A program made the position numbers and the translations under genes. A DNA stretch of 20,000 bases from Catajapyx aquilonaris. Its lineage: Eukaryota. This document shows positions 5,218-19,909 of this stretch, piece after piece (the stretch's first letter is position 1; every line of letters starts with the position of its first letter). Location: assembly GCA_000934665.2 (NCBI GenBank), contig KZ538062.1:116034-136033 (forward strand). The letters run 5' to 3'. A model generated the notes under the pieces. That model was not told the origin of the DNA. It made no database searches and was given only the letters and a program-made list of their open reading frames with translations.

Positions 5218-5560
5218 AGGGAGGCGGAGTGGTGCTGCGGTAATGTATGTGCCCACGGATGTTAAGGTCCCGGGTTCGATCCCAACCCGGGGACACCCCC
5301 CTCATCTCGTGCAGAGTTCATTGGGTCACCTCTGGCTTCGTCTCGGGTGGTATTTCCTACAGACTAAACCACCCGGGGGAGTGACTCACTAAAATTGGCC
5401 ACAGCGTCAGATGCACTGCACCTTGCACATCCCCTCCTGTCATCCTGCCCGTGGGCCCGGGCGCTTCAAAATCATTGGCTCCATGTATATAATGGTTCAA
5501 TAAAGGTTCCGTGTGATATACCCCCCACCGGGGGTGAAAGCACTTACCCAGGATTATTAT
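5218..5560 (+). mobile_element. tRNA-derived SINE, full length, with 21-bp target-site duplication
   Basis: A-box-like TGGTGCTGCGG, B-box GGTTCGATCCC and a short (ATT)n tail. Direct repeats AATATCAGGTCAGGTTGGAAG at 5197-5217 and 5561-5581. A second copy lies at 6904-7147. Confidence 0.88.
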
Positions 5561-5930
5561 AATATCAGGTCAGGTTGGAAGTCGAATCTCGCCGGGCAGG
5601 ACTTGCAGATAAGACCAACCGAGATGTCAGCACCAGTCGGTGCCTTGAATAAGTAAAAGCGCCGAAAAGTCAACGCGGCGGAATAGAAAAGCTCAATGTC
5701 GAATTCACATTTTTTTTTGTTATGCACATTTAAATAAACTGTAAAAGTATACTTATTATCCACAAAATGCGTGGGTACCTGTTGATGTGGAATAAATGCA
5801 ATGGTTTTCATTTGAAATGGGTTTAAACTAATTTCATCTCCGGCCTTTCCAAGCGGCGTGTGTTGGCACCCCTTCCGCCCGTTCCCTCCTCCCCTCGTGT
5901 CTCTTCTAGAAGCTTTTGTTCCAGACCACG

Positions 5931-5938
5931 CTCTTTCC
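5931..5938 (+). promoter_or_regulatory. TCT (polypyrimidine initiator / 5'TOP-like) core promoter motif for CCT2
   Basis: CTCTTTCC matches the YYC(+1)TTTYY consensus, 35 nt upstream of the ATG, within a pyrimidine-rich stretch of a GC-rich island. The TSS itself is not verified. Confidence 0.55.
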
Positions 5939-5967
5939 CCTTGTCCCCGACTCCAAACCGGATCAAC

Positions 5968-5970
5968 ATG
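5968..5970 (+). CDS. CCT2: CCT2 exon 1 coding part (initiator ATG only)
   Basis: CAACATG|GTAAGA gives a good start context followed directly by a strong donor. Exon 2 starts in phase 0 with V-S-L-N-P and has no Met of its own. Confidence 0.85.
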
Positions 5971-8900
5971 GTAAGAACACTCTCCGGGGGCCGCCCCTGG
6001 GCCGACCCGGGACTAGTATTAGCCAGAAAGTAACATGGTTATGGTTGAGAAAGAAAAGGTTGAGTCATCTTTCTTCCGGAATGGTCCGCCGGGCGTGGTC
6101 CGCACTCCCCAATTTGGTCATGTTCTACGCTCGATTATTAACATGGGGGGAGAAAAGAAAAACCTTCCTGCACAAACCAGAACCTCGCCTGACTCCGAGC
6201 TTCTTGGCCCTGCTTAGGTGGGGCCAGGGGCAGGAGGTTGAAGGCGCAGGTAGTGCCTCAAAAGGGAAGGAGATTAATGCCTTCCATTTTTAATGGAAGG
6301 CTCCGGTGTTCTTTGTGGGCCCCTGCGGTAGACCTCTATCTTTATGTCTGGTTGCAGTCGGCCTGGGGAACGCCGAACAATGATTTAAGTGCAATCAGTA
6401 TAATTACCGTTAATCTATAGCGTATTTTCATAGTCACAAGCTAATAATTACAATAAACACCAATAGTTATAGTATATTAATAATAGTTACAATATATCAC
6501 ATTGTAATCAGAACTAATATATAATAGTTATAATTATTTTAGTATTTATTATTTTTATTTATTATTTTTACTAGCAGGTTACCCGGTGTTGCCCGGGTAT
6601 GTTGGGGTGCTGGTAAAGATAGGGGTACATATCTGTGATAGATTACCTGCTTGTCTTAGAGCGTACAGTCGACACGGATATTCTGATTGGATGTGTAAAA
6701 GGCGGAATGCGGATGGAGTTGGCCCAGGAAAAGACTGCACAGCCATGTGTTTTTCCCCTGCATTTTTGACCCCTTGACCCTCCCCTCCCCCCCAACCCCA
6801 CTTCACACCCCCACCTCGTTCTATATGTTTGCTCTGGATAACTTTAGAAATGTACGCACAGATGTATTATGGGAAATTTTGTTTTCAACACGGAGTAATA
6901 TAAAGTGGTGCTGCGGGAACGTCGGGTTCGATGCCAGCCCGGGGTTCCCTCCTTCATGCCGTGCAGAGTTGGGTCGTCTCTGGCTTCGTTTCGGGTGGAA
7001 TCTCTTCAGACTAATCCACCTGGTGGAGTTCACAAAATACACCGCTTGAGAATTGCACTTGCACCTTGCACATCCCCTCCCAGTCACCCTGCCCGTGGGC
7101 CCGGGCGCTACGTCAAAAAGGTTCCATCGAGACAAAATAAAGGTTCCCTCCCTGCGGTACGATGCAGGGAGGTAAATAGCTAAAAAAAGATAGGCATGTC
7201 CATGGGAATGCAAATTGATTTATTGCTATTGATGTAAGCTAATTGTTGAGGCAGGAATATGCGTGTTGTGGGAGTTAGGTACATTTTTGGAAGCTGAAAC
7301 ATGCGGCGTTAGATTCCTTGGAAAAAGTAACCCCCGATATGCTAATTTAAGGCGGTGTAAGGGCCTTCCCCTGGATTTCTATAAGGGACAAACATCCAAA
7401 CTTCCTTATTTATAGATATAGAGATTATTTATTTTTATTATATTTTAATATATTTATTATTATATTATTTTTGTTTCTGAGGTGAGCAGGGGTGGGGGGT
7501 GGGACGGGTTGATTTTAGGTTTATACTCACATGAGTTTTATTAGTTCATATGTTGGGGTAGCTTGCGTCTCCCTTCATCGCTGACTACCCCTCATAGGGA
7601 AATGTCATGATGACGTTGTTGTTGTTGTATAATTATTACTATGTAATAGTTATATAATATGAATAAAATAATTTGACTGTATTTACAGGTATCCCTAAAC
7701 CCAGTGCGTGTTTTAAAGCAAGAGGCGGAGGAGGAGAAGGCGGAGATAGCTCGCCTGTCGTCCTTTGTGGGCGCAATTGCTATAGGGGACCTGGTAAAGA
7801 GCACTCTTGGCCCCAAGGGGATGGATAAGATCCTTGTGGGTTTGGGTCGGCATAACCAGGGTGAGGTGGAGGTGACCAACGATGGGGCCACTATCCTGAA
7901 GGCTATTGGGGTGGACAACCCGGCAGCTAAGGTTCTGGTGGATATGAGTCGGGTGCAGGATGATGAGGTTGGGGATGGGACCACCTCGGTTACGGTGCTG
8001 GCTTCTGAGCTGCTCAGAGAGGCGGAGAAGCTCATCGACATGAAGCTCCATCCTCAGACTATTATTGCTGGGTGGAGGAAGTCCACTGACGTTGCCAGGC
8101 AGGCCTTGGAGGATGCATCTAAGGATAACAGGTATGTGAAGCCAGCAAGTACCACAGTGAGACATGAAAAGATGCTAATCATTGACTTGTATACAATCTT
8201 GGCAGTTCTGATGATGCAAAGTTCCGTGAAGATCTTCTGAACATTGCCCGCACGACCCTGTCCTCGAAGATCCTTTCTCAGCACAAGGATCATTTCTCGA
8301 CTCTGGCAGTGGAGGCAGTTTTGCGGTTGAAAGGCTGCTTCAATTTGGATGCGATTCAAATCCTGAAGCAACGTGGGGGCACCCTGGATGACTCCTACTT
8401 GGACGCTGGTTTTCTCTTGCCCAAGAGCATTGGCGTTAATCAACCAAAGAGGGTAGAGAAGGCCAAGATCCTCATTGCCAACACGCCAATGGACACAGAC
8501 AAGATCAAGGTGTTTGGATCCCGTGTCCGGGCCGAGTCCACTGCGCAGGTGGCTCAGCTGGAGATTGCTGAAAAGGAGAAGATGAAACAGAAGGTTCAGA
8601 AGATACTCAAGCATGGTTGCACCGTCTTCATCAACAGGTGAGAGCACAGCATTGCTGACAATTTCAACCTTCCCGCACAACCAGAATCCCACAGGACTCC
8701 TTGTTCCCTGGTTTCGTGACTTGCTTTTTCAAAGTGGGTCTGAAGCCAGGTGCGGGAGGGTGACAGTGTGGATAGTGCGTCAAAGGAAGGAGATTATTGT
8801 GCTTTTAAAGTGCGCTAGTGCTCCTCTATGGGCCCCCATGGTGGACCTCTATCTTTATGTCCGGTTGTGGAAGGCCTCGAGAGCGCTGGACAGTTGCTTC

Positions 8901-9994
8901 GTATAATAATTGCTGTTGATTAAAATAACCCAATGCAACATCGCTAATTTTGTCAAACATTCAACAGACAACTGATCTACAACTACCCAGAGCAGCTGTT
9001 TGCCGATGCAGGTGTGATGGCTATTGAGCATGCGGACTTTGATGGCATTGAGCGTCTTGCACTGGTGACTGGTGGTGAAATTGTGTCTACCTTCGACAAT
9101 CCTGACCATGTTAAGCTGGGGCAATGTGATGTAATTGAGGAGGTACTGTCATTTAAATTCTTGTACATGTTTTGGGCCTAGGTGATGATGATGGTGTTTG
9201 TTAATTTGTACTGACTTTCAGGTGATGATTGGAGAAGACAAGCTGATCAAGTTCAGTGGGGTGGCCATGGGAGAAGCCTGCTCCATAGTTATTCGAGGTG
9301 CAACACAGCAAATCCTGGATGAAGCAGAAAGATCTCTTCATGACGCCTTGTGTGTGCTGGCATCAACTGTCAAGGAGACGCGAATTGTGTATGGCGGAGG
9401 TCAGTATTTCCTCTAGGTATATTTGTTGCGATGACTTAATTGCTCATTGTTAAACTTTGCAGGTTGCAGTGAAATGCTGATGGCAAATGCAGTGACCAAG
9501 GCTGCCTTGGAGACTCCTGGTAAGGAAGCTGTGGCCATGGAGGCGTTTGCGAAGGCTCTTCAGATGCTGCCAAGGATCATTGCGGACAATGCAGGATATG
9601 ACTCGGCACAACTGGTGGCTGAGCTTAGAGCGGTGCACAACAAGGGAGATTGCACCATGGGGCTAAGTGAGTTTGATTTCATTTCTTCACGGCCTCACAA
9701 GCCTTGGAAGCCAACTTGATTCTCAAAAAAATCTATGAATTGTGAATAGCCTGAGTGTGATGATGGAACATCCCAAAACATTCATACAAGTATTATTCCA
9801 CAATCTCTTGACATATTTCAGACATGGATGAGGGTAAGGTGGACTGCATGTCTAAGCTGGGAGTGACTGAGTCTTATGCTGTGAAGCGCCAAGTGCTGGT
9901 CTCAGCTTCCGAGGCTGCAGAAATGATTCTCCGTGTGGACAGCATCATCAAGAGTGCTCCACGCAGGCGGGTACCAGATAGGCATCCTTGCTAA
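5968..9994 (+). CDS. CCT2: T-complex protein 1 subunit beta (CCT2), complete spliced CDS: join(5968..5970,7689..8131,8206..8637,8968..9142,9222..9399,9463..9666,9822..9994)
   Basis: All introns are GT..AG and phases are consistent. The joined length is 1608 nt = 535 aa + stop. Group II chaperonin motifs: [43 protein letters not shown]. Beta-subunit-type ends [11 protein letters not shown]... and ...[12 protein letters not shown]. Confidence 0.97.
6161..6382 (+). ncRNA. Intronic box H/ACA-type structured RNA, copy A (CCT2 intron 1); possibly SNORA81-related
   Basis: 5' hairpin closed by CCTTCC(6163-6168)/GGAAGG(6265-6270). H box AGATTA at 6271-6276. Small hairpin GCCTTCCATT/AATGGAAGGC. 3' hairpin closed by CGGTGTTC/GAACGCCG. 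ACA at 6377-6379. Paralogous to 8666-8895 with compensatory changes. Confidence 0.8.
6570..7425. mobile_element. Non-autonomous Helitron/HINE (Lep1/DINE-1-like) element in CCT2 intron 1, containing the nested SINE
   Basis: One end is ACTAGCAGGTTACCCGGTGTTGCCCGGG (short hairpin) and the other is ...TTATTTATAGATATAGAGAT. It is inserted in a T-rich (TTTA)n tract without a TSD. Family assignment rests on end motifs only. Confidence 0.6.
6904..7147 (+). mobile_element. Second, diverged and truncated copy of the same tRNA-SINE family
   Basis: Shares AGTGGTGCTGCGG, GGGTTCGAT, CGTGCAGAGTT, CTCTGGCTTCGT, TGCACCTTGCACATCCCCTCC, CCTGCCCGTGGGCCCGGGCGCT and AATAAAGGTTCC with 5218-5560; deletion between the A and B boxes. 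Confidence 0.85.
7689..8131 (+). CDS. CCT2: CCT2 exon 2
   Basis: tttacag|GTATCC...GATAACAG|gtatgt; [17 protein letters not shown]...ASKDN. Confidence 0.96.
8206..8637 (+). CDS. CCT2: CCT2 exon 3
   Basis: ggcag|TTCTGAT...ATCAACAG|gtgaga; [21 protein letters not shown]...HGCTVFINR. Confidence 0.96.
8666..8895 (+). ncRNA. Intronic box H/ACA-type structured RNA, copy B (CCT2 intron 3); possibly SNORA81-related
   Basis: CCTTCC(8668-8673)/GGAAGG(8785-8790). H box AGATTA at 8791-8796. Small hairpin TGTGCTTT/AAAGTGCG. 3' hairpin CTAGTGCTC/GAGCGCTGG. ACA at 8890-8892. It fills most of a 330-nt intron and ends about 72 nt before the 3' splice site. Confidence 0.82.
8968..9142 (+). CDS. CCT2: CCT2 exon 4
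   Basis: caacag|ACAACTG...GAGGAG|gtactg; [43 protein letters not shown]. Confidence 0.96.
9222..9399 (+). CDS. CCT2: CCT2 exon 5
   Basis: tttcag|GTGATGATT...GGCGGAG|gtcagt; [13 protein letters not shown]...IVYGG. Confidence 0.96.
9463..9666 (+). CDS. CCT2: CCT2 exon 6
   Basis: tttgcag|GTTGCAGT...GGGCTAA|gtgagt; [10 protein letters not shown]...[14 protein letters not shown]...TMGL. Confidence 0.96.
9822..9994 (+). CDS. CCT2: CCT2 exon 7 (last coding exon)
   Basis: tttcag|ACATGGAT...[26 protein letters not shown]...[27 protein letters not shown]. Confidence 0.96.
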
Positions 9995-10538: not shown

Positions 10539-11310
10539 TTATCTTCGGATCTTTCGGAACAGGAAATAGTCCCTTGGGGCAAGGTCTGGGCTGTATGGCG
10601 GATGGTTCAGTGTTTGGAAGCCACATTCAGCAATGGTGGCCTGTGATTTGTGCGACATGTGCACAGGTGCGTTGTCGTGGAGAAGAAGAATGCCTAATGC
10701 AAGTCTCCCACGACTTTTGTCCTTAATTGCCTGTTGCAGAGCCCTCACAGTTGCAGCATAAGACTCCCCAGTGATGGTCTTCTTGTGAGGCATGAATTCC
10801 AGTAGTAGTAGTAGGCCATCTTCGTCCCAGAAAACAGTGGCCATGATCTTCCCTGCGGAGCGCTGCACACGGGACTTCTGCGTCGGAGAACCCTTGTGCT
10901 TCCACTACATTGACTCTTTGTTTGGATTCAGGGTCCCACTGATGGACCCATGTTTCGTCACCTGTCACCACTCGAGGGAAAAATCCATGGGGATCATCTC
11001 CAAGGCGCTCCAAATTCTCCTGACTGTACTCGCTGCGGCAGGCTTTTTGCATTGGCGTGAGCATTCTGGGCACCCACCTGGAACTGACCTTGGACATCCC
11101 CAAATTTTCATGGATAATTTTCCAAACTGTTCCTGCTGAAATGTCCAATCCCTTCACGATTTCTACAACCTTGACTCGACGGTCCATCATAATGAATGTC
11201 TCCACTTTGTCGCACATTTCCTCTGAAGATGCACTCACCGGCCGCCCTAGGTGGGGGTCATCTTCAGTTGACTCCCGTCCCCATTTGAACGGCTTACTCC
11301 AGAACTTTCA
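10539..11310 (-). mobile_element. Decayed mariner (D,D34D) transposase, 5'-truncated pseudogene
   Basis: Motifs GRESTEDD..GRP, WVPRMLT, TGDETWV, KIMATVFWD, HDNAPVH, HPPYSPDLAPRDY (34 residues between the 2nd and 3rd Asp). +1 frameshift near 10917, in-frame TAG at 10905-10907 and an early stop at 10539. No TIRs recognised. Confidence 0.92.
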
Positions 11311-12101: not shown

Positions 12102-15100
12102 CTGCAACAATGAACAGAGTAGTTAGAAATAGTAGTTAGAATAACTAAAATTACATGGAAACTGAGGGGTAATAGCCATGCATTACATTATGTGGAGACA
12201 CAAAATTTACTCGAAATATTAATTCCTCTGCCCTTAATGGCGCTCTTCCTGCAAAATTAAATTAACGTATTCATTTGCTACCCAATTCTGAAGCCTTCGC
12301 TGTTTAGGGGGGGTGTGGACACACTCTGTACATAACAATTCCAACCCTCCTCCACCCTCGTCACAAAGATGTTGGTCACTATTCTGGAATATATGACTGA
12401 ACTTGCAATATTTCATTGATACATTCAAAATAGTACAGAGGGGTGGGAGGGATAAACAAAGGTAAGTTCTAGTATGCAAAATTACAGCCTACTCATTTTG
12501 ATTACATAGTGTGGTAAGATTGAGATGCCCAAGTTAGCTCTACTTTGGCTGGCTTTTTCATGAATTAGTAAATGACAAGACACAACAATGCACAGACGGA
12601 CAATTGGAACACACAGACACAGACACACACATGCTTACCGAAGATGCTAGGGTCTTTCCAGCCAAGTCATTTACGCTGGATTGGTCAAAAAAGTAAACAG
12701 GAAGAACAAAGCTTTTGTTAGATTATTACGAATTATTCCTGCTGCACATTAGGCTACATCTAATGGTACTGTTAATTAGAATGGGGTATATGGCTAAAAG
12801 ATATTCAGTATTTTAGAACACACTTCCAACTTCTCAACACACAACTGCACAAAAAAGCATATACTTTTTACGCCAAAGCAGATGCCAGCGTACTTCTCAT
12901 AAAAATTATAATGGCATCACTGACTTTACGTTAGCTATTAGCTAGAGATATGAGTGATGATTCATTTGTTGATGCCAACTATTTCCATACTATTGTCTTC
13001 CCTTTAGTGATAACTAATCACCACTTTCATACAATCATTATAGAAAGCTTTTTAAAAACTTCCCTTTGGTCGGCATCCAAGCTTTGAAGCTAGCGCCACA
13101 CACACACATGCTTAGTCTGCCTACTGAGTAAGCCAGTGATGTGGTCAGCCATTGGATCACTACTGAGCCCACAAATGATACCTAGGACTACCAAATTTAA
13201 AAATTAATGGAACAGGACTATGGCGTAATAAAGGATACACTTAAAATGACTTCTCACATTAACAAAGGACAAACTGTACAGTCCTGGTGCAGGTCTCATT
13301 AAAATTCCAAAAGATCACTAACAGATGCAGGCCAACTTTCTGCAGATCTTACCACTCTCCTCTACCCCAGTGACACAATTCACCTCTAAGTGCATCAACC
13401 ACTACCCACTCTATTGTAGTGATGCATTTAGGTCTTCCTAAAAGAGTAAGTAACATAAGCACTCCCATTTGCCTAATGGATTGAACTTGATCAGTATTTG
13501 TATACAGTGAGTATTTGGGGTACTTTTAGTTATTGCAAATTGCACTCAAATTATTATCTTTGTGTAGCTTTTTGCACCCAATTATGTAGCAACTGCTATA
13601 TTCAAGCACACCTGGGAACAATAAATTGGGCACCTCGCTCGGTGCACAAAAAATAACAAAGCTCCAAGAGCAATGTTTCAGTATCATAAAAGTACAGTAC
13701 TATTATATACCCAACCAAAATCTAAAAAGACCTGCCTTAAAATACATCAAAAATGTCCAATAAAATTGGCAGATGACTCGGCTCACCAGTGAGTGCAGCA
13801 TCCCATTGGCTAGACTGCTGATCTTCCCTGCCACTTTCGTGACTCCCTGACGTACACTCTCCTTTACATCATCAAAGTCAGGTGCCTGGAGGCTAGAAAA
13901 GGAGGCTGATCCACTCATTCCACTACCCATTCCCCTGTCCTCGCTTCGGCCAAAGTAGTCAGCAGAAGAGATACTGCTTGAGCCTTCAAATCGGGAAAGG
14001 TTGGCACGCTTCTCCATCTGTATAGTGCAAAATTAGAATCACTTGAGAGAACCCACACACCACATAGACTTAACTCATAAGTCTCTTCCATCCAAAAAAA
14101 TCCTTTGGGTGCAATGCACTTTCTAATTTCTTCGCATTCAAACTCTAATACAGATTGTATGCACACTGCATGCGGAAGGAATAAAAACATTTTTATTACA
14201 TCTATGTCGTTGTTGTCCTGGAAGAACTGCTGTGAGGAAATGGCTTTTGCATTGCCAAACTTCTTCTGGGCCTCATTCCCAAATGATGGCTCGGAGGTAA
14301 CAGGGGCAGCTTCCCTCCTGGAGTGATGATGCCTGCTGCTGCGCTCCTCCTCTAAAATTTCACTGAGTGACGAAGAAGCTGACTTGCGCATTGGACCAAA
14401 GTCATCGTTGTCCCATAAACTCTTCTTGTTGCTGCTGCTGGAACCAAACCCAAGGTCTGACTCAAGAGAAGAGAATCCTCCAAGCTTTGATTCGAAGGAA
14501 GGGCTCTTGAATCTGCTAGGACCAGTGCCACCAATCACTTCAAAATCATCTAGAAAGTCGTCCACTCGGCGATCAAAGGAGGAACGCGGTATGGATGGGC
14601 TCTCTTGCTCGATGGTATGCATGTCACTTATTGCTGAATGACTCACACCGCTGCAGGAATGGGAGAGACGGAATGCATTTGAAAGATTTAATATAATTTA
14701 AAAACCTTTGGCAAGTTGATTGAACTCACCCTCTTGCCCCAAATCCCATTCCCAGCCTCTCGACTTGTTCTGCTTTCTTGGGATCAAGTTGCTTAATCTT
14801 CTCTTCCTCTTTCTTTCGCTGGATGGACAGGTCCTGGTAGGCCAGGCGCATAGTGGCCATCTGGCGCTCCTCCTCCTCTGCCCTTTTGGCATCACGCACT
14901 TTTGCCTCTTCAGCCATTCGCTCTCGTGCTTCATCAGCCATATGGGCTTCACGTTCAATCTCTGCAAAGTCCATCTTCACCTTTTGGGCTCCCAGGCCAC
15001 CCTTCTTGACTCCCAACTAACAACCAAGAATTGATATGTTAGCCCTGTCGTCCATAATTAATGCATATTCGAAACAAATCTTCACAAACATGCTTAGGAA

Positions 15101-18100
15101 AGAGTTGCTTTGTCACGTTCTTTTTAATTCCTCACCCCCAGCCACCGCTAAGATGTGACAACATAACATTGTCTCAGCATACGGGCAGGAACATCATTGT
15201 CAACAAGAATAATTTTTGTAAATCCCCAATCACGTAATTTAATAACTGGCAAGCAACGTTGAAGTAACTTGAACAAGTAAATTGTCAAACTCAAGTACTA
15301 CTGTAGATCTTTTAAAATATCTGGTCATCACTGAACATAAAAAAGCACTTACTCCTGCCTTCTTAGGTGCTGGTTTCCTCTGCCCAATTGTTGCTTTCCT
15401 CCCCTCATTCATTTTCAGAGCATCTGTGGGACTGGTGCTAAGTGCTGCTTCTACACTTGGAGCGCCAACATCACCAAGGTGCTGCTGGGGCTTCATCTGG
15501 GTCAGCGATGGAGACCTACCATTTTCCCAGCCCCCAGCACTGTCAGAATTCAATATGTAATCACCTGACGATTGGGTGTGCTCTTCAAAGAAGTCAATGC
15601 TCTTGTCCTCTTCCTTGTTACTTTCAGCAGGGACAGATTCAAGGTGAAGCTGAAAAGTCATTGAAGTGTAATTATTTTTACACTTACAATGGCAATGCAG
15701 GCATGCTCATATGCAAACTTGCATGATTATCATCATTACAAAATGTGACACATGAACAAATCACGATTGCGTTGGATAATTACTTTGCTTCACTGCCAAA
15801 ATTATGCTTTCAGCATGGCACACTATCGGAGACCACCAAAGTCCTGTATTTATATGAGTAGTAACTGTATTAACTTCATGCTACTGCTGCAGAAAAACAA
15901 TGCATCAGAGGTCGACTTTCCAGGCAACACACTTAGAAAGTACACCCTACGGTTATGTGCAGATACATTGTTCTTCGAAAGTATGGCAGAGTAACACACT
16001 GCATTTTTTATCTTTAAATATAATGTGAGCAATAATAATCACCATTTGACCCAACATCAAAATTAATGAGACTTTCAAAAAATTAAAACAATTGACCTGC
16101 AATTTCAGAAGACTCTCTGAGAGAAGATATTTTTAAACCTAACGGGTTGGGTAAAATCTCAGTACCAGGCCACAATCAATAGTATCGTAAAAAATTTAGC
16201 TTAAAAATATCACTCCATGGCCATATTAGAAGCAGTTATGAGTAGTAACAGCAATGGTAAAATTTCTATGATTATGTTAGAAGAAAAAAGGTGGTTAATT
16301 GGTGCAAAGTGGAGGCAGAAATGAGGTGCTTTCTCACCCCTTGTACTTGGGATTGAGTCCCAGAAGCAATACTCAGCAGGGCTGTGGGCCACAGCTGTCA
16401 TAAAAATAAAATTAAACAAAAATAACAACAGTCATGTGTGAAACCTAAGGTTTGAGGAAGGACATTTCCTTGGGATATTTCGTATGTGAGAAGGACAGAC
16501 CTTGTTTCCATGGATCCTCATTGCCTGTACAGCCAGCTGGTGAAGCTTTTCTCGGTACAGATGAGCAGCTCGAGAGTTGTACTTTTGCTGGGCGTCAGTT
16601 GATGTGCAGTTATGTTGGCAGAAGAATGTCATCTGTGGAAATACACAAGATATAATGCAGTGGTTCATTGTTTCATTAATGCACTGCACATTGCTGCATC
16701 AAGTACCATGAAAATGAGCATGTCAAAAACATCAACTGACCATGTGAAATGAATGTGATTAGAAAGAAAGTGCATACACAATGCATCATGTGTTTATTTC
16801 GTGCATTTCAACACAATTAACTCAGATATGCCTGAAAGATCTTTTGTTTAAATTTTGTTTTTTTGTTTGTTTTTATTAGTTCATGATAGTCCCCAAAACA
16901 CAACAAAAATGATAAAAAAAATTATGGAACGCTAGATTGTAAGGAAAGGGCCGTCCCCTATAGGGGACACTCGGCAAATGTAACATCTAGTATGGCTATA
17001 CTGTACAAGAAAACGTAAGATATACTCGTAGGCTGCTGTATTGAAATAAAGATTAAAGTGGTTTTTTAATTCATTGAAAAATATAGAGAAGGAATGTTAT
17101 AGCTAAGACCCAATGTCCTATTTATAGGACATCTAATTTTGCAATAAGTGATTGCAACAAAAATATGAAATTCTGAAAAATGGCTTCTACACCTCCACTG
17201 CAGAGGGTTCTTCCAAAGTATTACTAAATAATTGCACAAATGGCTTCTCTGGTCTCAGGAGGGTATAACGGAAACGTGTTCATTGCGGAATTTTAGAGTC
17301 ACGTGCTATTCAGATATGTACAGGTTTCGCTGTGTATAAATACACAGTGAAACCTGTCAACAACGGACCCTGTGTATAATGGAAACTAGCCTATTGCGAA
17401 ATTTTTCTGGTAACTGGCATATGAAAATCACACAATTTCCGCTATATTCGACACGGAAATCGTGTACGTTCCATACGCCAGTTACCAGAAGAAATCCGCA
17501 ATAGGCAAGTTTCTGTTATCCACAGGGTCCGTTGTGGACAGGTTTTACTTCCCATCTAGCTATATCAGTGAAATCTGCGCATGGCGGAAATGCACGGGAT
17601 GATAAAACTTTCCGTAATGAGCAAGTTTCCGCTATATTCGACGCGGAAATCATGTACTTTCCATACACCCGTTACCAGAAAAATTCTGCAATAGGCAAGT
17701 TTCCGTTATGTTCAGGGTCCGTTATGGACAGGATTCACTTTAGATAAATATGTAGTGAAACCTGTCCATAACGTAGCCTACCCTGAGTGTTACAAAAACT
17801 TGTCCATTGCGGAATTGTTCCGGGAACGGGCGTATGCATAGGACATAAATACCGTGTCGAATATAGCGGAAACGGCTGATATACCGTACTAGGCCTTATA
17901 TTATATCCAACATCATTAAATGGTTCGCGCGCGCTATCCGCAAAAACAGCACCACTTTTTTTTCTCCCCCCACTCTCTACCACCTCTGCCCACAATGCTT
18001 TGCGGCGTTGCAGCTTTCACTTCCAATTTTACCCGTTTGGTGCTGATGACTGGGAAAATCGTAATTTTCAGCGGAAACTTGTCAATTACGATTTTTAGGG

Positions 18101-19397
18101 CACTGTGCTATTCTGCTGTACACAGGTTTCACTGTATCCAAAAGCGAAAGTTTGTATGCATGTATGTTTGATTGTACATGGCAGTGGGTTACCATAGCTA
18201 CGATGGTTGTCGGGTAACCCTAGTTTTAAAAATAGGGATCCATAAAAATTCAGTTCGACAAAACGCACAAAATCCGCACGCATACAGTAGCTTACAGTAC
18301 TGGTACTTGACTTGCCGGTCCACATGTGGTGCATTTGCCGAGTGTCCCTCATAGGGGACACCCGATTTCAACGCCACCCTCAGACAAGGAAAGTAAAAAA
18401 TATGCCCATATTTCTACATCGACATCATCATTCATGTTTTCTAAGTATTACAAACAAAAAATGACTCATAATGCTAATCAACATTCGATAATTAATTACT
18501 AATCGTCTTCGGAACGTGGAGGTGCAGCCATTATTTCCTGCGTTAAAATTCAAACACCTGTATCTTAAAAATCTGCAGCAATATTGAGCAGGTTTGAACT
18601 TGCATCGTTAACTGGGACTCTGTCACTACTGCCAGCTCTTTAGCAGCAGAAGAACCTGCCCAAAAAAATTAAAATGTAACAACTGTGCAGGTGTCCCCTA
18701 TAGGGCACACTGGGCATATCTGGGTTAAACTGCCAAAGAGACTTGTAAGACAAAATCAGAAAGCCTCAACCATTCATGGAACAGAAAAACCACATGTGGA
18801 CTTGGAAGCAAATCCAGGCCGTAACATGCCCTGTGAATGCCAAATCACCTCTCTTCATGTAATATTAAATCATGCAGCTCAAATCAAATGAGACCATGGG
18901 AATAATCGCCAAAATCAGTTATCACCAAGCATGGCAACTACGCCATATCTCTAGTGTTCAAAGGTCCAATCTAGCATTACTTTAGCAATAGAAACCAACA
19001 TCGGGCAGTAAATAAAGAAAAATGACTACGAGGCTAAGTAGGAACACTGAACTCTAGTTGCTGTTTACATCAAAATCACTCCCAGTCCAAATGGGCACAA
19101 CCACAGCAAAAATTCATCCAGCTTTAATCTGCAAACTGGCACTTTTAATTTCACGTGGACAATGTGATGTTGAAAGTCGCCACCGAGTCATCATGGACAA
19201 CTTACAGCACTTGCATTTCCACCAAGCTGCATGTGTCTGAGCTGCACCCACGTCCAGTTGGTGTCCAGTTGTGTGGAGCGAACAAACGAGATGTGAACAC
19301 CCAGGCTGCGATGGACGGCTGAGCAGTCTATGCAGATAAAGACTCCATAAGTCACGCTTGCCCATGTTGGATTCTTGGCACTGCAGTCGAAGCACAC
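12081..19397 (-). CDS. ARFGAP2/3: ADP-ribosylation factor GTPase-activating protein 2/3 (Glo3-type), 5'-partial: complement(join(12081..12101,13787..14017,14200..14650,14730..15016,15353..15649,16501..16632,19206..19397))
   Basis: ArfGAP zinc finger CFDC-x16-CIDC followed by SAVHR and [15 protein letters not shown]. Also KYNSRAA, GLGAQKV, MRLAYQD, ERLGMG, paired Glo3 motifs AISSQQFF / SISSADYF, and C-terminal ERYGNY*. GT..AG introns with consistent phases. The first coding exon is not in the window. Confidence 0.94.
13787..14017 (-). CDS. ARFGAP2/3: ArfGAP2/3 exon
   Basis: tacag|ATGGAG...TCACTG|gtgagc; [17 protein letters not shown]...[23 protein letters not shown]. Confidence 0.94.
14200..14650 (-). 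CDS. ARFGAP2/3: ArfGAP2/3 exon
   Basis: ctgcag|CGGTGTG...ATAGAT|gtaata; [15 protein letters not shown]...[17 protein letters not shown]. Confidence 0.92.
14730..15016 (-). CDS. ARFGAP2/3: ArfGAP2/3 exon
   Basis: gttag|TTGGGA...AGAGG|gtgagt; [13 protein letters not shown]...MRLAYQD...ERLGMGFG. Confidence 0.94.
15353..15649 (-). CDS. ARFGAP2/3: ArfGAP2/3 exon
   Basis: ttttcag|CTTCAC...GCAGGA|gtaagt; LHLES...DFFEEH...[13 protein letters not shown]. Confidence 0.9.
16501..16632 (-). CDS. ARFGAP2/3: ArfGAP2/3 exon
   Basis: cacag|ATGACATTC...AACAAG|gtctgt; MTFFCQHNC...[14 protein letters not shown]...HGNK. Confidence 0.93.
16821..18724. mobile_element. Non-autonomous piggyBac-like element in an ArfGAP intron
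   Basis: TTAA|CTCAGATATGCC ... GGCATATCTGGG|TTAA (11/12 TIR match; TTAA at 16817-16820 and 18725-18728). An internal palindromic motif GTCCCCTATAGGGGACAC recurs at 16953, ~18342 and 18691. Confidence 0.7.
17262..18134. mobile_element. Cluster of four adjacent Tc1/pogo-type MITE copies (CAGTGAAACCTGT ends)
   Basis: Copies at ~17262-17332 (partial), 17345-17549 (almost fully palindromic), 17566-17739 and 17753-18134. Shared blocks TTTCCGCTATATTCGAC, GCAATAGGCAAGTTTC and CAGGGTCCGTT. Confidence 0.8.
19206..19397 (-). CDS. ARFGAP2/3: ArfGAP2/3 exon (GAP zinc finger)
   Basis: tttcag|GTGTGCTTC...AGTGCT|gtaagt; [30 protein letters not shown]...GGNASA; 64 codons. Confidence 0.96.
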
Positions 19398-19909
19398 CTG
19401 AAAGAAAACCATAATTTCCATTACATTACAATCACCAACCCTTAAATACTACATTAATCTGAAAATAGCAGCCTGCATGTGATAGTATTTGTTATGTACA
19501 ATAAAACTAATCATGCAAGACAAGAAAATAATGGGCAAATTCTATTATGGCAATAAATAGCTTAGGGTCTACTCATGATTACACAACAACGAACTGCACC
19601 TTACTGTGCATGTAGCTAATTCCTCGGAAAGGCATTTTGTCTATACCGTGCATTGTTTCATTTCAGTGGTGACTTGTAATAAGTGATGTTCTGCAGATTC
19701 CAGTTTTGCAAAAATCTGCATTTCAAATTCTCAGTTTTGCAATACCTACTATAAAATGATGACAGGAGGCACTAGGAAAGTTAGATCAATTACATTTTTA
19801 ATTGTCAAGATTATGATTCATTTTTCAAGCTGTCAATAGTTCATTAACATGCAAATAATGATATTAATGTGTCCCAAATAATATTTCCCACTGCATATTA
19901 CCATATATA

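Follow-up and report, generated by a model that had tools for sequence, protein, structure and literature searches.

The long box H/ACA RNA U17/snR30 (SNORA73) carries conserved single-stranded elements in an internal loop, need not guide modification and is needed for 18S processing; its defining motifs, m1 and m2, are found shortly before box ACA, where the 3' hairpin has its internal loop. Another member of the class, the small nucleolar RNA (snoRNA) SNORA81 (HBI-61), measures 178 nucleotides (nt) in human, lies in EIF4A2 and has its H box at position 92 and its 3' box at position 173; in the tables of Jorjani et al. 2016 (PMC4914119), hairpin 1 is assigned the target 28S-4606, hairpin 2 is given no reported target and the conservation is entered as 'Vertebrates'. 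Two further sources (PMC8759569; bioRxiv 10.64898/2026.10.06.757013) describe SNORA81 as guiding pseudouridine at 28S U4606 (U4636 in the newer numbering), in helix 96, and tie it to this single, partially modified pseudouridine, which affects translation and the growth of ovarian cancer cells; according to the latter, a preprint, the helix 96 uridine is not universally conserved among eukaryotes. Here we describe two predicted RNAs, copies A and B, in introns 1 and 3 of the CCT2 gene of Catajapyx aquilonaris. They lie on a 20,000-nt stretch of contig KZ538062.1 (GenBank assembly GCA_000934665.2, positions 116,034 to 136,033, forward strand), called the window below, in whose numbering all their positions are given. 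We consider it likely that the two copies are paralogous, functional, intron-encoded box H/ACA snoRNA genes and distant relatives of SNORA81.

Two paralogous copies in introns of CCT2

The host gene was modelled from reading frames and splice signals, which place the ATG at 5968-5970, exon 2 at 7689-8131 and exon 3 at 8206-8637, with intron 1 at 5971-7688, intron 2 at 8132-8205 and intron 3 at 8638-8967. The protein encoded by exon 2 matched the T-complex protein 1 subunit beta in solved TRiC structures with an E value of 4e-62, which identifies the host as CCT2, and it was about 75% identical to the mammalian protein (109 of 145 residues, counted on the match line), a lower identity than vertebrates show with one another and one that suits a non-vertebrate animal. 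The gene model and the protein match agree with the original prediction, made from the DNA letters alone, which placed the copies in CCT2 introns 1 and 3, both in the sense of the host, and had copy B fill most of its own intron, of which it occupies 230 of 330 nt. Direct reading of the flanks revealed no poly(A) tail and no target-site duplication at either copy, again as had been claimed.

Copies A and B are colinear paralogues on the sense strand. When the window was searched by blastn with copy A, copy B was recovered in two segments, one of 158 nt with 71.5% identity (E = 4e-15) and one of 36 nt at the 5' end with 80.6% identity, and no third copy turned up in the 20 kb; the only other match with an E value below 0.01 was that of the hinge hairpin of copy A with itself. 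In MAFFT alignments made with and without flanks, the similarity opens at AACCUUCC and fades about 3 nt past box ACA, the surrounding intron sequence being unrelated. The blocks common to both copies are, in order, AACCTTCCyGCACAA(A)CCAGAA, GACTCC, TAGTGCsTCAAA, GGAAGGAGATTA, TGGGCCCC, GACCTCTATCTTTATGTC, GGCCT and the terminal ACA; every block named in the original prediction, which had also described the flanks as unrelated, is present in these alignments. The positions of the two copies and of their parts are given in Table 1.

Table 1. Positions of copies A and B and of their structural parts in the window
Feature	Position	Strand	Remarks
Copy A, whole predicted RNA, 222 nt	6161..6382	+	CCT2 intron 1, 190 nt past the 5' splice site
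Copy A 5' hairpin	6163..6270	+	Lower stem CCUUCC (6163-6168) / GGAAGG (6265-6270)
Copy A conserved internal loop	6169-6181 (5' strand), 6252-6264 (3' strand)	+	13 + 13 nt; long, variable distal stem above
Copy A box H, AGAUUA	6271..6276	+	Fits ANANNA; direct reading; straight after GGAAGG of the lower stem
Copy A hinge hairpin, 10 base pairs	6279..6301	+	Minimum free energy fold
Copy A 3' hairpin	6304..6375	+	Nearly fully paired; 14-nt apical loop CCUCUAUCUUUAUG at 6333-6346
Copy A box ACA	6377..6379	+	1 nt past the 3' hairpin, leaving 3 nt to the predicted end (6380-6382)
Copy B, whole predicted RNA, 230 nt	8666..8895	+	CCT2 intron 3; 28 nt past the 5' splice site, 72 nt before the 3' splice site
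Copy B 5' hairpin	8668..8790	+	Lower stem 8668-8673 / 8785-8790; distal stem 18 nt longer than that of copy A
Copy B internal loop	8674-8685 (5' strand), 8774-8784 (3' strand)	+	12 + 11 nt
Copy B box H, AGAUUA	8791..8796	+	Same as that of copy A; straight after GGAAGG of the lower stem
Copy B hinge hairpin, 7 base pairs	8798..8814	+	Several G-U pairs; minimum free energy fold
Copy B 3' hairpin	8815..8889	+	Identical 14-nt apical loop at 8846-8859
Copy B box ACA	8890..8892	+	Abuts the 3' hairpin, leaving 3 nt to the predicted end (8893-8895)

One fold kept in both copies

The minimum free energy (MFE) was -105.9 kcal/mol for copy A (z = -5.5) and -91.8 kcal/mol for copy B (z = -3.3), and in neither case did any of 200 shuffled sequences do as well. 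The reverse complements folded less stably (-83.9 and -63.0 kcal/mol for A and B, respectively), the plus strand being better by 22 to 29 kcal/mol. Because of this difference, and of the G-U pairs that make up 8 and 11 of the 62 consensus pairs in the two copies, the plus strand is taken as the RNA strand. Both MFE folds and the consensus fold show the order hairpin, hinge, hairpin and tail, plus an extra small hairpin in the hinge. The folds, the boxes and the table of individual pairs thus bear out the claim of two intron-encoded paralogous RNAs that keep their structure and carry hairpins and both boxes, H and ACA.

The consensus computed with RNAalifold contains 62 pairs in six helices, 14 of them changed on both sides and 10 on one side only, with none broken. 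Controls in which the partners were slid by 1 to 3 columns gave 0 to 3 changes on both sides and 39 to 46% paired cells, and none of 500 shuffles reached the values observed for the consensus pairs. Helices 1 to 3, which form the 5' hairpin, account for 31 pairs (6 changed on both sides, 0 broken), and helix 4, the hinge hairpin, for 7 pairs, 4 of which are changed on both sides; its sequences differ, and both copies fold there. All the compensatory stem differences listed in the original prediction were found in the table of pairs, and the small hairpin that it had placed after box H, differing in sequence yet folding in both copies, is helix 4.

Given that the consensus was derived from copies A and B themselves, the MFE structure of each copy was also read onto the other. 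The structure of A has 72 pairs: in B, 39 of these are the same, 24 differ but still pair, 5 are disrupted and 4 fall at gaps; for the structure of B read onto A (80 pairs), the corresponding values were 40, 22, 6 and 12. The copies differ at 38 of 124 paired columns and at 27 of 87 unpaired ones, i.e., at equal rates, so that the stems evolve as fast as the loops, though in a compensated manner. At about 30% divergence, such a compensated pattern would hardly be expected unless the fold were under selection.

These data bear on the alternative that the copies are a mobile or retroposed element (a short interspersed element or a snoRNA retrogene), or else a neutral segmental duplicate devoid of a function of its own. 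The occurrence of other repeats in the window speaks for it. However, both copies stand in sense orientation in introns of a single gene, with no visible tail or target-site duplication and no third copy in the 20 kb; the boxes and single-stranded blocks are invariant, while the stems vary in a compensated way; and at a divergence of about 31%, 24 of the 29 changed pairs of the fold of A are still paired in B. An origin of this kind is therefore highly improbable.

Architecture and class of the two RNAs

The 3' hairpin is 72 to 75 nt long, and its apical loop is invariant between the copies. The sole loop lying at a plausible distance from box ACA in this hairpin is paired, and the differences that A and B show there are compensatory (helix 5); the 3' hairpin is therefore without a guide pocket, in line with the earlier description of a nearly fully paired hairpin that lacks a normal pseudouridylation pocket. 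The absence of the U17 m1 and m2 motifs, which had likewise been predicted, was upheld, since the corresponding region is paired and compensated, and no Rfam match to U17/snR30 was obtained for either copy at E values up to 10.

Copy A is alone in having the words of the lower stem recur in its hinge hairpin (6265-6301; GGAAGG ... CCUUCC ... GGAAGG), so that the 3' strand of this stem could pair there rather than with the 5' end. The same spot (6265-6301) was also matched on the minus strand, at 10.9 bits, by R2, a model of the 5' domain used in the searches reported below.

It is unusual for modification guides to have such a length, an extra hairpin and a 3' hairpin without a pocket, and these features might point to another structured intronic RNA, such as a Cajal-body or telomerase-like H/ACA RNA, or to a cis-acting element in CCT2 splicing. 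Cajal-body signals sit in conserved apical loops, which also counts in favor of this idea. Nevertheless, on direct reading the apical loop has no UGAG-type motif, and the UUAG tetraloop of the 5' hairpin of copy A is not kept in copy B. Moreover, the sharp limit of similarity 3 nt past box ACA suits a trimmed stable RNA rather than a cis element. We regard this alternative as very unlikely. U17-type, Cajal-body and telomerase-type identities were rejected, the respective motifs being missing. Copies A and B are predicted, with good confidence, to be H/ACA snoRNAs.

Resemblance to SNORA81

The original prediction had named a search of Rfam among its checks, and this search gave no strong match. 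At the gathering score there were no matches in the window, and among five weak matches obtained at E values up to 10 over 5900-9200, none was to an H/ACA family. When each copy was searched alone at the same E value limit, three weak matches were returned for A and two for B, the sole H/ACA family among them being SNORA81 (RF01241). Positions 123 to 148 of the 179 in this model matched the apex of the 3' hairpin, at 6327-6352 in copy A (12.8 bits, E = 4) and at 8840-8865 in copy B (16.1 bits, E = 0.76). These matches were still weighed because they were of the right class, on the right strand and in the same structural position.

A 26-base degenerate pattern of the apex fetched a single locus from metagenome contigs, L001, which Rfam identified as SNORA81 at 370-550 on the minus strand (189.9 bits, E = 3.5e-39). 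This confirmed vertebrate SNORA81, which served as positive control, has eIF4A exons on either side of the intron that contains it. At the apex, the 26-mer of L001 agrees with that of copy A at 22 of 26 bases and with that of copy B at 24, and it ends 31 nt from the 3' end of the RNA versus 30 nt in both copies. No matches to the apex 26-mer, to a two-block pattern or to an rRNA motif were found in viral contigs.

A covariance model, R1, was built from the 3' hairpins of A and B only (83 positions, 24 pairs) and used in an unfiltered search of 27.8 kb. It aligned 370-451 of L001 end to end (positions 1 to 83) with 25.9 bits and an E value of 1.1e-5, the next best match other than the copies themselves scoring 12.9 bits. 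In the alignment of the three 3' hairpins, 98.6% of the cells were paired and 11 of the 24 pairs were changed on both sides, in an arrangement that was fitted to R1 and is hence biased in that direction. A MAFFT alignment of A, B and L001 was sensible at the apex and at the 3' end only.

In all three RNAs, the central six bases of the apical loop could pair with the purine-rich stretch where the lower stem meets box H (6338-6343 with 6269-6274 in copy A, 8851-8856 with 8789-8794 in copy B, and positions 135-140 with 85-96 of the L001 RNA); the loop of L001 departs from that of our copies at two bases, and its hinge sequence differs as well. This internal pairing was given no weight, as 6 nt of a pyrimidine loop against a purine run are too prone to chance. 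In the open-access papers covered by our search, we found no relevant mention of the apical loop motif in four spellings, and none of them connected an H/ACA snoRNA with an intron of CCT2.

The description of the pair as an unusual, non-canonical family stands in part: the pocket-less 3' hairpin and the extra hinge hairpin were found, whereas the family probably has known relatives, since apex, layout and distance to the 3' end match those of vertebrate SNORA81. As the human 3' hairpin has no reported target in the source cited above, the supposedly atypical 3' hairpin is a trait of a described family. The CCT2 pair would probably represent divergent relatives, invisible to Rfam, of a snoRNA kind already described, the family itself not being new.

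A candidate target in helix 96 of 28S rRNA

Targets of the 5' loop were sought in stand-in, animal-type fragments of large subunit (LSU) rRNA, L002 and L003, which came from a scan of genome contigs for a short motif of the sarcin-ricin region. The scan for guides assumed the canonical H/ACA geometry, in which the 3' and 5' strands of the loop pair on either side of a target uridine, with 13 to 17 nt to box H. With the pocket of L001, the helix 96 uridine ranked 1st of 165 (L002:682), and 5 of 300 shuffled guides were as good there. With copy B it ranked 1st of 165 on L002 (position 682) and 1st of 144 on L003 (position 4635), at 15 nt to box H, shuffled guides being as good in 25 and 15 of 300 cases, respectively; this preference is suggestive and not significant against shuffled guides. 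With copy A, the same uridine ranked 26th of 165 and 25th of 144, and 203 and 145 of the 300 shuffled guides were as good. For its part, the 5' strand of the loop of copy A had its best ungapped duplex with L002 on the 5' strand of helix 96, over 13 nt with 1 mismatch and 3 G-U pairs, in a non-canonical geometry.

Helix 96 is thus the best lead for a target of the 5' loop, as an unproven candidate, and it seems doubtful, though possible, that copies A and B guide modification at this site. The apical loop of the 3' hairpin was also compared with the stand-in fragments; the best shared site, of 11 nt, falls inside the group I intron of L002 and was rejected for that reason.

The fragments L002 (62-373) and L003 (98-4348) belong to records of bacterial metagenome-assembled genomes that carry eukaryote-type LSU rRNA, probably through contamination of the bins. 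The LSU of L002 contains the group I intron just mentioned (116.5 bits), and that of L003 is in two pieces about 4.2 kb apart, with unassigned sequence between them.

Other features of the window

A dispersed repeat of about 200 nt is present upstream of CCT2 (5271-5471) and in intron 1 (6923-7118), the two copies being 79% identical over 208 nt. It resembles a short interspersed element; ARAGORN reported no tRNA genes in the window. A cluster of inverted and direct repeats, with units of about 115 to 130 nt and 67 to 87% identity, extends over 17264-17873, between or downstream of genes. Just downstream of CCT2, on the minus strand, open frames of 121 and 194 amino acids (10539-11307) are presumably the remnant of a mariner/Tc1-type transposase, recognized as such by eye. 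Also on the minus strand, 19191-19448 and about 13700-15700 contain what we take to be exons of a convergent neighboring gene, one frame showing by eye an ArfGAP-type zinc-finger motif.

In intron 3, a weak Rfam match to the box C/D-like snoR32_R81 was obtained on the minus strand at 8890-8975 (25.1 bits versus a gathering score of 45, E = 2.4). This match, antisense and overlapping the 3' end of copy B, is most likely due to chance.

Discussion

The interpretation of copies A and B as functional H/ACA snoRNA genes related to SNORA81 has several points against it. The consensus structure comes from the same two sequences that it describes, so that the covariation rests on n = 2 and does not amount to a formal test. 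From the top of the 5' loop to box H there are 19 nt in A and 17 nt in B, versus 14 to 16 nt in canonical guides, although a subconfiguration of the loop of copy B gives 15 nt. In the canonical-geometry scan of L002 and L003, copy A does not choose the SNORA81 site. The Rfam scores for SNORA81 lie below the gathering cut-off of 45 bits and are not significant alone. Since L001 was fetched with the apex pattern, its apex matches by construction, and what it adds as evidence is limited to the bits gained over the remainder of the hairpin. Beyond the 26-nt apex, sequence likeness to SNORA81 is weak. The best match of R2 other than the copies themselves was L001 452-551, aligned end to end with 11.9 bits and a nonsignificant E value of 0.29. 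Finally, the host gene is CCT2, versus EIF4A2 for SNORA81.

Part of this evidence would equally suit a lineage-specific H/ACA family unrelated to SNORA81, in which the apical loop reflects convergence on the same partner, or chance. Clear likeness is limited to 26 nt, with Rfam E values of 0.76 and 4; the 5' domains are not significantly alike; and host, length and hinge hairpin differ. Such an origin, however, does not account well for a match that belongs to an H/ACA family, lies on the right strand and in the same place at the apex, and stands 30 versus 31 nt from the 3' end. Besides, the 3' hairpin can be aligned over its full length at an E value of 1e-5, and the ACCUUC start and the pocket-less 3' hairpin are common to both. 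We thus hold an unrelated family to be unlikely, and homology of copies A and B to SNORA81 to be reasonably probable.

If copies A and B are H/ACA snoRNAs, then by analogy with established H/ACA biology each would be transcribed within the CCT2 pre-mRNA, and dyskerin, Nop10, Nhp2 and Gar1 would assemble on boxes H and ACA and the two main hairpins. Once the intron is spliced out, exonucleases would trim it down to a protected RNA of about 222 or 230 nt, ending 3 nt past ACA. The conserved internal loop of the 5' hairpin may be the part that contacts the target RNA. The 3' hairpin would act not as a pseudouridylation guide but as a conserved structural or recognition module, of which the 14-nt apical loop would be the most constrained part.

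A bolder proposal, which we offer as speculation and think rather improbable, is that this loop, CCUCUWUCUUWAUG with its closing stem, is an ancient module kept from the CCT2 pair to vertebrate SNORA81 while the guide, the host and the remaining sequence turned over. The module would then have a non-guide role, e.g., docking to the pre-ribosome or binding of a dedicated protein, and the CCT2 RNAs, whose 5' loop is oversized and lies at a non-canonical distance, would be mainly chaperones of the helix 96 region in pre-rRNA and not guides of modification.

Were the pair true relatives in a more distant animal, the SNORA81 family would be older than annotated and would have changed its host gene, and its best-kept part would be the apex of the target-less 3' hairpin and not the known guide. 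This would point to a further function of the loop and provide a concrete element for mutation. For annotation, the pair would be an example of real snoRNA genes missed by Rfam models.

In comparison with canonical two-hairpin guides of about 130 to 150 nt, copies A and B share the arrangement of hairpin, hinge, hairpin and tail, the ANANNA and ACA boxes and a sense placement in introns; they differ in being about 80 nt longer, in having a third hairpin, located in the hinge, in lacking a pocket in the 3' hairpin, and in a 5' loop that is oversized and non-canonically spaced. With U17/snR30 they share the condition of long H/ACA RNAs with conserved single-stranded elements in an internal loop, and they differ from it in that the m1/m2 region of their 3' hairpin is the compensated stem of helix 5.

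The likeness to SNORA81 extends further. Both are intron-encoded and unusually long for H/ACA RNAs, and the human RNA and L001 start with ACCUUC, as A and B do after one extra A. In both, a long 3' hairpin with no reported target ends in the 14-nt loop closed by the same stem. In contrast, A and B measure 222 to 230 nt versus 178 to 181 nt, the extra 45 to 50 nt or so corresponding to the hinge hairpin and to a longer 5' hairpin with a larger loop. Vertebrate SNORA81 lacks the additional hairpin that A and B have after box H and before the 3' hairpin; the 5' internal loop of A and B is about twice as large, lies 17 to 19 nt from box H and has another sequence; and two copies occur in one host gene. 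What the CCT2 pair and vertebrate SNORA81 have in common, and what makes the comparison of interest, is the apex of the 3' hairpin, the one without a target.

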